Source of the DNA: a phage
NCBI GenBank assembly: GCA_025830695.1
Contig: GCA_025830695.1_4111.2
DNA length: 64,000 bases
Strand: one strand, 5' to 3'
Every line of letters starts with the position of its first letter. The stretch's first letter is position 1. A program made the position numbers and the translations under genes. Shown here piece after piece: positions 1-64,000 of the stretch. The notes beneath the pieces are model-generated. The model was not told the DNA's origin, made no database searches, and saw only the letters and a list, made by a program, of their open reading frames with translations.

Positions 1-978
1 CATCCCTAATCTCACTAACTTCAACGGGTAATTGTAAATTGGTAGCACTATATATAGCACCAGTTTGAGAATTGTTTAATCCCAAACCACGGTTCGCCCC
101 AACACCCTTCTGATATGTACTAGTAATTACCATTTGTGTAGCAGTATTTAAGGCAGGTGAATTCGTCATAAACAACGGAGAACTATTAGGCAAAGTACTT
201 AAAGGAACTGCACGGAATGTAGTCGTACCTGAACTAAGAAAGTTTGGAGTTTGACCACATACGAAATATGATGTACCATTATAGTAATTTAATGCATTAC
301 CACCAATGGCTGCATCGATTACACCAGAACTACGCAATCCCCAAGTGTTAATTTGTGTTTGGTTCCCCGTACCATGCTGCCCACTACTATTCCATCCAGA
401 ACTATATAGCTTATTATCTAATGTAAGATACATACTATCATTCGCATTGGTCATTACTTTACGAACGTTCGTAGCACATTGAGTTAATGTGTAAATTGAT
501 GATGAACCAATACCCAAAGAACCACGATATCCATTATCTCCTGCACCATAGAGTACTGAATTAGTGCTAAGTACAAATATTAAACCATTTGTGCATACAA
601 TATTAGCAATTTCACTGACTGGTATAGCATTGGTAAACCAACTAGTCCTTTCAACTAATACAGTACTGTAAGAAGTAGTTGTAGAAGATGAGAACCAGTA
701 CGTTTGACCTGATGTCCATATAGTATTATCATTTTTAATAATAACAAGTGTACGATCACCCACGAAAAAATTAGAAACATCTGCACTTACTAATGTCCAC
801 GAAGACACCGTGTTGGTATTACCATTTCCAGATTCACCACCTTGATTTCTACCTATGTAATATAAATCATGTGAATCAGTCAATAAGAATTGACCTTGTG
901 TAGAAGCACCAACTTTAATTATTTTTTTAGGACCAGGGACAATATTTCCATACCTAATTATTCTTCCAAAAGGTAACA
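1..978 (-). CDS. RCC1-like repeat (beta-propeller) protein, partial; 3-prime end lies beyond window start
   Basis: ATG at 976-978 (minus) with GGAGGG SD at 983-988; N-terminus MLPFGRIIRYGNIVPG paralogous to neighbour; G-x-N-x-x-G-Q/E-x-G-x-G repeats; frame read by eye to window edge. Confidence 0.55.
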
Positions 979-987
979 TATTCCCTC

Positions 988-2190
988 CTATTGTTGCCAT
1001 AACTGCGTTGGCATTAATGTTAGTGTAGTAATACTATAAGTGCCATCTGGCAATCTACCACCATTTCCATTCCAGCCACCACATGCATATAATTTATAAT
1101 CTTTAGTAATTATTATGGTTCTGCTCCAATCTTTAGATGCCATAAGAACATTTTCATAACCACCACTTATTGCACTAAGATTAAAAATATTCCAAGTTCT
1201 AACTAATGTATTAGTTCCATTACCTTCTTGACCATATGAGTTAGCACCACTACTTCTAACATATGGTGCGTATTGTGCCATAGGTGCACCAATTGATGCA
1301 TTTCCCATATTACTTGGACAAATAAAAGTACTGTACTTACTTACATCAACCGTGACCGATGTGTTCCTAATTGGTGTTAGCTGATTTACCGATGTAGTCG
1401 TACCATTACCCGCTTGTCCAGTACTGTTAGCCCCGCTATAATATACAGACCCACCAGTAGTAAACCACCAAGTAACATCGTATGTAGTACTAATATGTTC
1501 TACATTACTAATCACGAATTTGTTCAAATATACAACAGAACTACCACCACATCCACTTTCACCAAAGTTATCCTTACCACAAAACCATGCATCTTTATTT
1601 GATTTGATATAGTGCGTTCCTTGTAATGAACATGCCATATGTGTAACTTCACCCATATTAGTCATAACTGTGAGTGTAGGGATGGAATTTTTATTACCAG
1701 AGCCACATTCACCATTGGTATTTCTTCCACACGCAATTACTCTACCATCGGTTAATAATATTCTAGTACTTTCACCTATATATACACTCTTGATCATATT
1801 AGCCATAACACCTATTTTATTAAATGCAACAGTAACATCAGTCCATGTTGTCAAATAACCATTAACAGGTGTTGCATCTCCATAATCAGAAAATGCAGCC
1901 ACAGACCCAGTGTAGTATATTTTATTATCCAAATCAATCATCAACGAACCTTGAACACCAAGCCAAAAGGCTGCACAGTTCCTTGCAAGTACTGTAAATG
2001 ACGAAACTGCTGCTGAATTCCCAAGACCAAATTGATACATGTTATTACTACCATAACCATATAAAGTATTAGTTGGGTTATGTAGATACATACAGTTTGT
2101 ATAATGTTGTTGTAAAACATCTGAGAACTCTACAGGTTCTGGACCTGGTGCAATATTTGCGTACTTAACCATTCTTCCAAAAGGTAACAT
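988..2190 (-). CDS. RCC1-like repeat (beta-propeller) protein
   Basis: ORF track 988..2208(-); start moved to second ATG (2188-2190), which has AAGGAGG 7 nt upstream; about six [YW]xxGxNxxG(Q/E)xGxG repeats spaced ca. 55 aa. Confidence 0.7.
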   Translation of the reverse strand: MLPFGRMVKYANIAPGPEPVEFSDVLQQHYTNCMYLHNPTNTLYGYGSNNMYQFGLGNSAAVSSFTVLARNCAAFWLGVQGSLMIDLDNKIYYTGSVAAFSDYGDATPVNGYLTTWTDVTVAFNKIGVMANMIKSVYIGESTRILLTDGRVIACGRNTNGECGSGNKNSIPTLTVMTNMGEVTHMACSLQGTHYIKSNKDAWFCGKDNFGESGCGGSSVVYLNKFVISNVEHISTTYDVTWWFTTGGSVYYSGANSTGQAGNGTTTSVNQLTPIRNTSVTVDVSKYSTFICPSNMGNASIGAPMAQYAPYVRSSGANSYGQEGNGTNTLVRTWNIFNLSAISGGYENVLMASKDWSRTIIITKDYKLYACGGWNGNGGRLPDGTYSITTLTLMPTQLWQQ

Positions 2191-2238
2191 AAATCCCTCC
2201 TTATTCATTATATCATATTTACCCCATAAAGAAAACCC

Positions 2239-2267
2239 TTGACATCCTTTCAGTACTGGTGTACTAT
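2239..2267 (+). promoter_or_regulatory. sigma70-like promoter for family A array
   Basis: TTGACA 2239-2244, 17-bp spacer, TACTAT 2262-2267; AAGGAG SD 2279-2284 before ATG 2293. Confidence 0.5.
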
Positions 2268-2292
2268 AGAAGGAATATAAGGAGAACTACAC

Positions 2293-2520
2293 ATGACAAA
2301 TACTCTTAAGTACTACCTCAATACTCTAAATGAACTAGAGTACGGGGAATTTCTCTCGGATAGTTCGTGGCTAATTGAGCTAAAAAATTATAATAGTCCA
2401 GGATGCACCCTTATGATGAACAATGCAATTGATACCCTCATTGTGAGTATTTTACACAGCAACATCTGCGGGGATAGCAATAAACAATTATCAAAAATCT
2501 TAGTACTGCTATCTATATGA
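2293..2520 (+). CDS. family A small paralog, hypothetical
   Basis: first ORF of tandem array; SD AAGGAG; ORF track. Confidence 0.6.
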   Translation: MTNTLKYYLNTLNELEYGEFLSDSSWLIELKNYNSPGCTLMMNNAIDTLIVSILHSNICGDSNKQLSKILVLLSI

Positions 2521-2720
2521 ACATTGAACAGTACTACATCGATGCACTACCAACAAAAGGTCTACGAGAAAGCCTACTGTATACACAAAATACTTTTATA
2601 CACTACAAACGTTGTCCTAAACTCCTGAACTCGTACAGGAGTAATATCATAAGAAATGCTTTACAAGGGGCAGAAAGTATGCAATACTATTATATCCTTG
2701 CCCTTTTAATCGAGTACTAA
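2517..2720 (+). CDS. family A small paralog, hypothetical
   Basis: ATGA stop/start overlap with upstream gene; N-term MNIEQYYIDALP, C-term LALLIEY. Confidence 0.6.
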   Translation: MNIEQYYIDALPTKGLRESLLYTQNTFIHYKRCPKLLNSYRSNIIRNALQGAESMQYYYILALLIEY

Positions 2721-2721
2721 T

Positions 2722-2931
2722 ATGAATACTGAACATAAAGAATTCTACACCAAATACCTTAGCAACGAAGAACAATTGTTTCTAAGGAGTGTATCACCTG
2801 TAAGTACCAATACTCAATTCGGTAGAGATTGCTTTAATAATTGTATACGTAGTACTCTAGAAGCAATCGAATGCAATAACAAAAATATTATGTACTCAGG
2901 TTTAATAGGACTAATCTACTTCTATGAATAA
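2722..2931 (+). CDS. family A (subtype A2, MNxEHKEFY...NNCI...YE) paralog
   Basis: near-identical architecture to 5734..5943. Confidence 0.6.
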   Translation: MNTEHKEFYTKYLSNEEQLFLRSVSPVSTNTQFGRDCFNNCIRSTLEAIECNNKNIMYSGLIGLIYFYE

Positions 2932-3118
2932 TCATAAAGATTTCTATTGTAGTAAACTACACAAGCAAGAACAGCTATCATTCTCTTTAGCACCACCTAT
3001 GAGAAAGGATAATCTATATTACAATTACGATTTCAGGATGGCGACACGTTATGCAATAGAACATCAGTTCCCTGAAACTAAGTACCGCTCTATCCTGAAC
3101 CTCATCTTTAAGTTCTAA
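2924..3118 (+). CDS. family A small paralog
   Basis: tandem ORF, overlapping start. Confidence 0.55.
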   Translation: MNNHKDFYCSKLHKQEQLSFSLAPPMRKDNLYYNYDFRMATRYAIEHQFPETKYRSILNLIFKF

Positions 3119-62883: not shown

Positions 62884-62891
62884 TGAAAATA

Positions 62892-62939
62892 ATGTGAACA
62901 TATTAGATTCTTGTGATATAATGTTCACATCTTTTTTTT
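62892..62939 (+). terminator. rho-independent terminator (10-bp perfect stem)
   Basis: ATGTGAACAT...ATGTTCACAT then TTTTTTTT. Confidence 0.6.
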
Positions 62940-62955
62940 GATAACGGAGATATAG

Positions 62956-63342
62956 ATGAATACAAGTTCAATCCTAAAAGCAATTGGTGGTGTTTTACTC
63001 ATTGAAGTAAAAGGTGAGCCAAAGCTATGCTGTTTAGAAGATATGAAGAATACAAAACACTTCAGTACTGGTCAGATTTTTAATGCCATTCGTATTCTAA
63101 ATGACAAATCCATTGCTGATTATGGTAAAGTTTGGCCTGTATATCAAAATGCTGATGGTGATATCAGTACTGATTGGAAAACAATTGAGGCGGTACGACA
63201 AAGTTGTGAGAGTGATTGGGACTTCATTGTTGAAGTTTGTGATCAACTACAAGAAGATGTTCCAGAAATTGTCGAACGAAAAGAAGTCCTAGCACGACTT
63301 GAAAAATTCCGTCACGGAACACTACAGTATGACACAATCTAA
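62956..63342 (+). CDS. hypothetical protein (128 aa)
   Basis: ORF track; SD GGAGA. Confidence 0.55.
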   Translation: MNTSSILKAIGGVLLIEVKGEPKLCCLEDMKNTKHFSTGQIFNAIRILNDKSIADYGKVWPVYQNADGDISTDWKTIEAVRQSCESDWDFIVEVCDQLQEDVPEIVERKEVLARLEKFRHGTLQYDTI

Positions 63343-63391
63343 TCTGCTTATTAAAAATATCTAATTAACATTATATAAAAGGAATTTAAAA

Positions 63392-63697
63392 ATGGAAGAC
63401 AATGGAATGAAATTTGATATGTTTGAAGGTGTACCAGAGTTCGATTTCAACAAACTTGAAGAAGGTGAGGAATCAGAACTAGTCAGTGTTACACTTAAAG
63501 CAGATTCTAAGAAGAAATATTCATCAGCAGTACGTTCACGTTCACAAGAAGAATACGAAACATTTATTGAAAGTATTCATTATGAAACATTCCATCATGC
63601 AGATGGAACTCCATATGAAGTACGTGTAACAGTACTGAAGCCTGAAGTAAATCCAATGGAAAATCTACGTCCTGTTTACTGCTGGGCAAGTCACTAA
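63392..63697 (+). CDS. hypothetical protein (101 aa)
   Basis: ORF track; SD AAGGAA. Confidence 0.55.
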   Translation: MEDNGMKFDMFEGVPEFDFNKLEEGEESELVSVTLKADSKKKYSSAVRSRSQEEYETFIESIHYETFHHADGTPYEVRVTVLKPEVNPMENLRPVYCWASH

Positions 63698-63705
63698 TAA
63701 ACCAA

Positions 63706-63737
63706 AGGACGGGATTTGTTATCTCGTCCTTTTTTTG
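63706..63737 (+). terminator. rho-independent terminator
   Basis: AGGACGGGAT...ATCTCGTCCT then TTTTTTT. Confidence 0.65.
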
Positions 63738-63748
63738 TCTGGAGATGT

Positions 63749-64000
63749 ATGAAACTTTATCTAATCGTTGACTACAATAAGGATTATGCTGGTAACTTCA
63801 CCGAAGATTCGGATGGATATTGCACATCGACTAATGTCAATGTACGTAGCAGTAGTGCTCATGAACATGAATCTTGTAAAAATCTAAAAGATTTTATCGC
63901 ATACCGAGCATTTGAAAAGAACTTCTGCCGCAGTAGATATTCGAAGTTTGAGTACCCGTTAATTGATGTTCCTGATGATTTAATGTTCCAGTTAATGCTG
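63749..64000 (+). CDS. family C-like protein, partial (continues beyond window end)
   Basis: ATG 63749; contains DVPDDLMFQLML. Confidence 0.45.
   Translation, partial: MKLYLIVDYNKDYAGNFTEDSDGYCTSTNVNVRSSSAHEHESCKNLKDFIAYRAFEKNFCRSRYSKFEYPLIDVPDDLMFQLML

Follow-up and report, generated by a model that had tools for sequence, protein, structure and literature searches.

An over-abundant AGTACT palindrome in RaK2-like jumbo phages, densest in and around the terminal repeat

The 64-kb window and its AGTACT sites

The DNA analyzed here is a stretch of 64,000 nucleotides from a phage contig (GCA_025830695.1_4111.2, hereafter the window), and our subject is the palindromic hexamer AGTACT, which occurs in it far more often than its composition predicts. 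By megablast the window belongs to the Asteriusvirus group of jumbo coliphages (PBECO4, 121Q, G17, Sharanji), with 99% identity to G17 over 26-50 kb and 94-99% identity to Sharanji over its full length. Nearly all of the annotated genes that match the window are hypothetical, and scans of the window for tRNAs and Rfam families gave no match.

Exact counting identified 257 copies of AGTACT in the window, against 21.5 expected from base composition and 18.9 from a first-order Markov model. In 100 dinucleotide-preserving shuffles the count was 18.82 ± 3.80 and never exceeded 28, bearing out the claim of the original prediction that the hexamer is far above composition. AGTACT is the first-ranked of all hexamers in the window (13.6-fold, z-score 54.7), and those ranked next, CAGTAC and GTACTG, are its own overlapping extensions. 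(The expectation from a fourth-order Markov model, 216, was set aside because such a model absorbs the motif itself.) Exact AGTACT is enriched 9-13-fold, whereas most of its single-mismatch neighbors are enriched just 1-3-fold. The preferred form is C-AGTACT-G, with C at position -1 in 110 of the 257 copies and G at +1 in 128. The longer words CAGTACTG, AAAGTACTTGCAA, and AGTACTGTATAAT occur 59, 9, and 10 times, respectively, and the commonest 10-mer around the hexamer is TCAGTACTGA, with 16 copies. A cluster of eight copies that had been noted at 6660-7320 was recovered in full, at positions 6707, 6751, 6867, 6963, 7109, 7149, 7292, and 7318.

The over-representation had originally been assigned to the whole of 1-64000; the excess is real but it is not uniform, running at ~6-6.5/kb through 1-26,138 and falling to zero in 26,139-31,509 and 33,955-41,667. 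The hottest zone is one copy of the direct terminal repeat (6,769-26,274, + strand), which contains small genes, each with its own sigma-70-type promoter, and 127 sites (6.51/kb). Its non-coding terminus (6,769-8,440) has 16 sites, or 9.6/kb, mostly in the form tcAGTACTgaat, and the unique DNA adjoining the repeat (1-6,768, + strand) has 41 (6.06/kb). Beyond the repeat, and likewise on the + strand, lie a site-free array of paralogous genes for proteins of ~72 amino acids (island B, 26,275-31,509), a segment between the islands with 17 sites (segment C, 31,510-33,955, 6.95/kb), a second site-free region of ~16 genes of 50-207 amino acids (island D, 33,956-41,667), and two segments of paralogous gene arrays, of which the first has 34 sites (segment E, 41,668-47,700, 5.64/kb) and the second 38 (segment F, 47,701-64,000), the density of the latter, 2.33/kb, being near the genome-wide level. 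The hot zone is the repeat together with the DNA that adjoins it in the concatemer, with site density ~3-fold higher in the repeat. The original prediction had missed this hot zone, as it had the two site-free islands and the spread of the trait through a whole phage clade.

Direct terminal repeats of 20,668 bp were reported for Sharanji based on PhageTerm (PMC11895373). The G17 record contains both copies, in that residues 1-12,775 are identical to 350,150-362,924, which gives a repeat of exactly 20,668 bp. From the G17 copies we mapped the repeat termini to window positions 6768/6769 (...GATATGTCACTA/AGTAGGCAGAGG) and 26274/26275 (...GGGCGGGTAACCT/TAGCGACTTCG); one AGTACT is located 12 bp from the first of these boundaries. 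Further short repeats of several families are found in the non-coding DNA of this terminus, at 6633-8400. Four copies of GAYGGATTTTGGRCGTAG are spread over ~7487-8065, repeats of the TAAGTAATCA type occupy 6633-6690 and 6833-6856, and units of GGCTAAACGGCTAGA that resemble iterons lie at ~7560-7700; a 44-nt repeat occurs twice, at 8287 and 8340. Elsewhere in the window, 34200-61600 (~27 kb) is filled by paralogous genes of 100-207 amino acids arranged back to back. These represent several PHROG families, of which several (among those sampled, up to ~45 kb) also weakly match phrog_12674, and none had a Pfam match.

Spread across relatives and selection at the DNA level

The AGTACT excess extends across the complete 350-kb genome of Sharanji, in which there are 902 sites versus 100 expected, with ~10 per 5 kb whether the genes are structural, replicative, or of unknown function. 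Genera other than Asteriusvirus were represented by samples of 25-50 kb. In these, AGTACT is again in excess in the Klebsiella phage RaK2 (Alcyoneusvirus; 189 versus 11.4 expected in 50 kb), the Cronobacter phage GAP32 (59 versus 6.5 in 25 kb), and the Pectobacterium phage CBB (57 versus 6.5 in 25 kb), and no hexamer ranks above it in any of the three. The excess is seen in phages sampled from three genera (Asteriusvirus, Alcyoneusvirus, and Mimasvirus) and is probably shared by their Yersinia and Erwinia relatives, and the site frequency in Sharanji and its relatives is one per ~250-400 bases, ~10 times that expected by chance. There is no excess in 25-kb samples of the Agrobacterium phage Atu_ph07 (3 versus 2.9 expected) or the Pseudomonas phage PA5oct (1 versus 7.8), and because it is absent from these more distant phages we assign the trait to the RaK2-like phages of enterobacteria. 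In the PA5oct sample (100001-125000) the hexamer is depleted. A 50-kb sample of Escherichia coli K-12 has 3 copies versus 4.8 expected, roughly one per 17 kb, so that the density in the phage is ~40 times that in the host sample. We found no mention of the excess in searches of the literature on AGTACT and phage promoters, Asteriusvirus, or RaK2, or in the RaK2, CBB, and Sharanji papers.

The positions of the sites have largely turned over between genera. Sharanji and GAP32 share 7 site positions, out of 30 and 48 sites, and Sharanji and RaK2 share 5, out of 45 and 40. This sharing is above chance but is confined to a minority of the sites, while density is kept, and we conclude that selection acts on the density of AGTACT and not on its position.

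In coding sequence the hexamer arises in all three reading frames. The codon pairs originally proposed as its source, S-T (AGT-ACT) and K-Y, Q-Y, and E-Y (xAG-TAC-Txx), do contribute, with 375 and 151 of the sites in Sharanji, but V-L pairs (xxA-GTA-CTx), which had been missed, contribute a further 238. The original prediction would have been overturned had AGTACT fallen to its expected frequency after codon usage and promoters were modeled, and it does not. In Sharanji open reading frames (ORFs) of at least 300 nt there are 635 sites, 3.5 times the 178.7 ± 11.4 obtained when synonymous codons are shuffled within each gene, a null that keeps the amino-acid sequence and the per-gene codon usage and is itself inflated by the motif; only ~40 of the 257 sites in the window are of promoter type. 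Shuffling of codon order in the same ORFs gave 115 ± 10 sites. ORFs of the window likewise exceed the synonymous null, with 26 sites versus 9.5 ± 2.3 in the terminal repeat and 64 versus 17.9 ± 3.5 in 41.7-64 kb. Among S-T pairs, AGT-ACT is used 333 times versus 101 expected from codon frequencies, and the reversed pair ACT-AGT is not enriched (31 versus 70 expected). The dipeptides themselves are inflated: S-T occurs 641 times versus 443 for T-S, and V-L 641 times versus 469 for L-V. The pressure for AGTACT therefore acts on the DNA and is strong enough to shape the proteins.

The bases that flank the site are mirror images of each other, being C/T/A/G in 427/220/203/52 copies genome-wide at -1 and G/A/T/C in 397/181/237/87 at +1. 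Each of these positions carries 0.33 bits of information, whereas positions farther out carry at most 0.04 bits. A signal acting at the RNA level would lack such symmetry. In the bulk of the Sharanji genome (45-325 kb) sites are present at 2.15/kb in coding and 2.89/kb in non-coding DNA, with no preference relative to gene starts or ends. Their spacing there is more even than random (coefficient of variation, CV, 0.876, P = 0.001), and the largest gap is 2,103 bp versus 3,153 bp expected (P = 0.0015); in RaK2 the CV of site spacing is 0.79.

Phages normally remove short palindromes to escape restriction, and this genome bears the marks of selection against restriction sites, GC-rich palindromes being avoided to an extreme degree. 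Of the 64 palindromic hexamers, 22 have no copy in the 350 kb of Sharanji, against a summed expectation of 453; these include GGATCC, CTGCAG, CCATGG, GCATGC, and TGGCCA. The tetramer GCGC is also absent, from both the 350-kb genome (179 expected) and the window (40 expected). AGTACT is the sole palindromic hexamer enriched more than 1.6-fold in the 350 kb, and its excess is all the more pointed for the purging of the others.

Early promoters and the site-free islands

The terminal repeat has ~31 strong sigma-70-type promoters and 28 of these carry AGTACT, at -39 to -34 in 14 of them, at -19 to -14 or -20 to -15 in 15, and at both positions in three. The promoters are of two kinds. In the first, aaaAGTAC/TTGCAA-N16-TATAAT, the site runs into the -35 hexamer, and in the second, TTGACA-N10-11-AGTACTG(G)-[TC]ATAAT, it lies in the spacer, where AGTACT is invariant and the remainder of the spacer is freely variable. 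A promoter with both positions is found at 15141-15173 (+ strand; AGTAC/TTGCAA, then an N16 spacer with AGTACTG, then TATAAT), in which the site at 15141 covers the upstream edge of the -35 element and that at 15161 is in the spacer beside the -10 element. These are positions at which a bound protein would exclude RNA polymerase.

The original prediction had AGTACT both immediately beside promoter hexamers and elsewhere. Both are correct, although promoter-consensus contexts hold only ~40 of the 257 sites and the other 217 are outside them. With a fixed distance to the -10 and -35 elements for so few of its copies, AGTACT does not behave as an element of the sigma-70 promoter; its mirror symmetry and its fixed overlap with the core elements of 28 of ~31 promoters are features of a dimeric operator. 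The promoters are part of recurring cassettes: throughout 8400-26274 (e.g., 15146-15215 and 16408-16470) every small gene of the repeat is preceded by a near-consensus promoter, then by TATAATGTTTTACAT and a 5′ stem-loop (GGGGAGAA...TTCTCCCC), an arrangement that resembles the cassettes of T4-type hyperplastic regions.

Island D differs from the rest of the window in that its + strand, which is the coding one, has no ACT trinucleotide between 33,953 and 41,597, a run of 7,646 nt. The usual spacing of ACT is 50 nt, the next-longest ACT-free run is 422 nt, and genome-wide the trinucleotide is not enriched (40.8 per 2 kb). Threonine codons in the island are ACA (61), ACC (16), and ACG (10), with no ACT, while AGT, the reverse complement of ACT, is at normal frequency. 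The run is also present in Sharanji (L002 444-8091) and, over 8,790 nt, in Turkey3 (L013 30004-38792), whose DNA is 81% identical across the island. In Turkey5 the ACT-free run is 4,402 nt (L017 26033-30433), and the closest of its proteins to one from island D has just ~28% identity. Nothing comparable was seen for any other tri- or tetranucleotide in Sharanji, or for any word in the remaining sampled genomes.

As AGTACT and TGTACT both contain ACT they are excluded from island D (TGTACT has no copy there), and AGTACA is the nearest word permitted. There are 41 copies of AGTACA in the island (5.3/kb) versus 3.7 expected, an eleven-fold excess. They are found in every frame, their positions are not homologous, C is again preferred at -1 and G at +1, and of 36 positions 22 are conserved in Turkey3, at 81% nucleotide identity, versus 29% expected neutrally. 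That AGTACA is enriched and conserved precisely where AGTACT is forbidden indicates that AGTACT-like sites are positively selected and that one changed base pair is tolerated. We had considered AGTACA in island D as a polar signal of the Chi, Ter, or primase type, an idea superseded by the strand-specific absence of every ACT.

The ban on ACT may most simply be read as immunity of the island transcripts to an endoribonuclease specific for ACU, or alternatively the word may be forbidden on one strand of the DNA. There are precedents for such an enzyme among toxins of the MazF family, which have specificities of three to seven bases. One enterobacterial MazF prefers UACU and UACG (PMC10864209), and Kid cleaves at UUACU (PMC5408214). 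The E. coli enzyme ChpBK (ACY) does not fit as the source of the pressure, as ACA and ACG are plentiful in the island.

Island B is of a different character. Beginning where the repeat ends, and with a promoter at 26,314 that lacks AGTACT, it comprises ~25 paralogous genes of ~72 amino acids (phrog_4148), tightly packed and overlapping. ACT and AGT are at normal levels in it and its trinucleotide composition is normal. Its paralogs share an L-Y-F codon motif, which gives rise to 5 of its 11 copies of TGTACT.

Possible readers of the AGTACT site

The mirror-symmetric flanks, the operator-like positions in promoters, and the selection for AGTACA are together best fitted by a DNA-binding protein. 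Our preferred reading, which is tentative and to which we give somewhat less than an even chance, is that AGTACT is a dispersed site for a dimeric DNA-binding protein of this phage clade, one that also acts at the early promoters as an operator and that coats or organizes the DNA. In such a scheme C-AGTACT-G (most often TTC-AGTACT-GAA) would be a positively selected, mirror-symmetric recognition site in double-stranded DNA, and its cognate factor would be a homodimeric, sequence-specific protein belonging to the enterobacterial RaK2-like jumbo phage lineage and presumably encoded by the phages themselves. The protein would decorate the phage chromosome about every 400 bp, as opposed to about one site per 17 kb in the host sample, and would be bound most densely in and around the 20-kb terminal repeat. 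There, with sites over the -35 edge or in the spacer by the -10 element of nearly every early promoter, its binding would shut off early transcription. The density of sites could also serve to discriminate phage from host DNA. A DNA-binding protein, a modification enzyme, and a selected signal of another kind had all been offered by the original prediction; that AGTACT is a selected DNA signal stands, and of these options the binding protein fits best, since tolerance of a base change in one half-site suits it better than a strict restriction or modification enzyme.

Several observations weigh against this reading. The site combines a sharp hexamer specificity with just 0.33 bits at ±1, which is more enzyme-like than a degenerate operator, and repression of early promoters is not in itself a reason for sites to be evenly spaced in late structural genes. 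Island B, without sites and of normal composition, is unaccounted for. As the promoters belong to two families of repeated cassettes, inheritance could account for part of the fixed placement of the site. Most early proteins of this phage are orphans, and no candidate for the cognate protein tracks the AGTACT trait. A Pfam scan of 543 Sharanji ORFs (one batch of which is represented by the best 25 of 48 families) had no helix-turn-helix regulator among the matches listed, nor any ScaI-type nuclease. One candidate, a 72-amino-acid protein of the terminal repeat (21378-21593, + strand), is annotated as a transcriptional regulator in Turkey5 but has just a faint similarity to winged-helix proteins. 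We rejected it as its homologs do not extend across the trait-bearing genera: they are found in Asteriusvirus and in some unrelated ~140 kb Klebsiella and Salmonella phages, with none detected in the RaK2-like genera outside Asteriusvirus, RaK2, GAP32, and CBB included.

Of the alternatives, the one that survives best, although we consider it clearly less probable than a binding protein, is that AGTACT is read on a single strand by a tracking enzyme, as a preferred start site for the phage's own DnaG-type primase or a Chi-like site for a helicase-nuclease, with the palindrome serving both strands. The genome-wide distribution of the sites, independent of gene context and without a gap greater than 2.1 kb in 280 kb (approximately the length scale of Okazaki fragments), would suit such an enzyme, as would the retention of density while positions turn over, the sharp, enzyme-like specificity for the hexamer, and the restriction of the trait to one clade, whose annotated genes include a phage primase and a gp41-type helicase. 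Island D, which has ACT and GTACT on one strand only, could then be a one-strand priming zone beside the repeat. However, the primases that are known recognize words of three or five nucleotides, and the known sites of the Chi type are asymmetric, with a strand bias. Signals of the Chi or KOPS kind are not matched here, as the word is a palindrome and its sole oriented variant, the AGTACA of island D, is a consequence of the strand-specific ban on ACT. A tracking enzyme also leaves unexplained the invariant placement in promoter spacers and at the -35 edge and the 3-fold rise in density within the repeat; genome-wide, ACT as such shows no enrichment, and there would be no reason to purge every ACT from the template of the leading strand.

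It is improbable, in our view, that AGTACT is the target of an orphan DNA methyltransferase of the phage and serves as an epigenetic mark for promoter timing, packaging, or strand discrimination in the manner of GATC/Dam or HIP1. A check for methyltransferase genes, proposed with the original prediction, did identify two enzymes among the Pfam matches listed for the 543 ORFs, a C5 methyltransferase and one of the Dam family (PF05869), although specificity for AGTACT cannot be read from their sequences. The strict 6-bp palindrome is typical of the sites of such enzymes. However, tested members of that Dam family are specific for GATC. The family is also too widespread to mark the trait, being present in more than 2,000 phage records, and AGTACA, which is selected to 5.3/kb in island D, would not be a substrate for an enzyme specific for AGTACT. 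The virion DNA of RaK2 is reported to be partly resistant to restriction, but bisulfite data for that phage indicate CpG methylation for the C5 enzyme (PMC3622015). A precedent for the proposal is HIP1, a hyper-abundant palindrome that is tied to orphan methyltransferases (PMC4390886; PMC5861425). A third putative methyltransferase, the 284-residue product of the ORF at 61719-62573 (+ strand), was so labeled in the Sharanji paper (WNN14829.1; PMC11895373), and we did not retain it, as it has no match to a methyltransferase family and no relative in the PDB.

More improbable still is a role as a cleavage or nicking site (A^GTAC^T, with a 4-base stagger) for a phage endonuclease or type II topoisomerase, acting in decatenation, recombination-dependent replication, or the production of T5-like nicks. 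Its attractions are the palindrome with a 4-bp core, the even spacing, the gyrase-like subunits and several nucleases encoded by the phage, and a genome layout which, like that of T5, has a long terminal repeat. Against these, double-strand cleavage at ~900 sites would endanger each genome, the sites of topoisomerase II are degenerate, placement in promoters is not explained, and a ScaI-type nuclease is missing from the Pfam matches listed. A restriction-modification system of the ScaI type is not indicated either, given that same absence among the matches listed and a site that is enriched and not avoided.

Two further proposals we reject, with hardly any probability left to either. Recruitment of the host nucleoid-occlusion protein SlmA to block cell division is suggested by the consensus of that protein (GTGAGTACTCAC), which has AGTACT at its center (PMC3020112), by the filamentation of Sharanji-infected cells (PMC11895373), and by the confinement of the trait to phages of Enterobacterales; however, SlmA requires G1, T2, and a purine at position 3 flanking AGY/RCT on both halves (PMC3020112), whereas the phage prefers C where the purine is required and has G least often at -1, and there is no full site in the 350-kb genome and one matching half in only 20 of the 902 sites. 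That the excess is a by-product of promoter cassettes and of codon or dipeptide usage, or of biased mutation or repair of the very-short-patch type, could draw on the ~40 sites in two repeated promoter families and on AGT, ACT, and GTA being frequent codons, but it founders on the 217 sites outside promoter contexts, the 3.5-fold excess over the synonymous null without enrichment of reversed codon pairs, the lack of depletion of any single-mismatch neighbor, and the lack of an excess in PA5oct and Atu_ph07, whose guanine-plus-cytosine contents (32 and 38%) are similar or somewhat higher.

Known systems and the meaning of the AGTACT excess

In being palindromes for a dimeric protein that are scattered over a replicon, some of them overlapping promoters, and that mark a particular DNA molecule or domain, the sites of KorB (plasmid RK2), SlmA, Noc, and MatP are similar to AGTACT; however, they number in the tens and are 12-16 bp long, whereas AGTACT has ~900 sites of 6-8 bp. 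GATC is used genome-wide at a spacing of ~1 kb or less, with its methylase and reading proteins known, and the pac site of phage P1 has hexamers that contain it. AGTACT is like GATC, as used by Dam, SeqA, and MutH, and like the P1 pac hexamers, in being a dense, short palindrome that is clustered at control regions and promoters, but the selection of the AGTACA variant would be unexpected for a methylation mark. With Chi, KOPS, and DNA uptake sequences it has in common over-representation, selection on density, and discrimination of self from foreign DNA; those words are asymmetric and strand-biased, whereas AGTACT is palindromic with symmetric flanks. The setting of the hot zone recalls the pre-early regions in the terminal repeats of T5 and SPO1, long direct repeats packed with small genes, and also the hyperplastic cassettes of T4-type phages, in which a strong promoter of host type and then a 5′ stem-loop precede each gene. 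To our knowledge none of these regions carries a genome-wide iterated palindrome, and the likeness is one of setting and not of motif.

The nearest known phenomenon is HIP1 of cyanobacteria (GCGATCGC; PMC4390886; PMC5861425). Both are short, exact palindromes that are hyper-abundant genome-wide, within and outside genes, beyond codon-aware expectation, kept across a clade, and spaced more regularly than chance. AGTACT differs in being viral, 6 bp long, AT-rich, and denser (1 per 250-400 bp), in having no methyltransferase tied to it, in being built into early promoters with a peak in a terminal repeat, and in residing in a genome that purges most other palindromes.

A more speculative scheme, possible but doubtful at present, combines the two peculiarities of these genomes. 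AGTACT would be a mark of "self," read by a dedicated phage machine, either an organizer and silencer that coats the chromosome or the primase of the replisome, and the ACT-free transcripts of island D would survive an early ACU-specific endoribonuclease made by either phage or host. If this were true, the phage would handle its 350-kb genome in one way and host DNA in another, and two previously unknown sequence-coded layers of control would operate in jumbo-phage infection. The ACT-free island points to a conflict at the level of RNA or single strands.

AGTACT is a simple signature of this phage lineage, and ScaI is predicted to cut these genomes to fragments of ~400 bp unless the site is modified. 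Given that phages normally purge palindromes, and that this one does so to an extreme, a single palindrome that is kept at ~900 copies and bends protein sequences implies a reading factor with a large effect on fitness. If identified, that factor would probably prove to be a global one, new to jumbo-phage biology, acting in chromosome organization, early shut-off, replication, or self/non-self discrimination, and would provide an experimentally tractable viral counterpart to the long-unsolved problem of HIP1.

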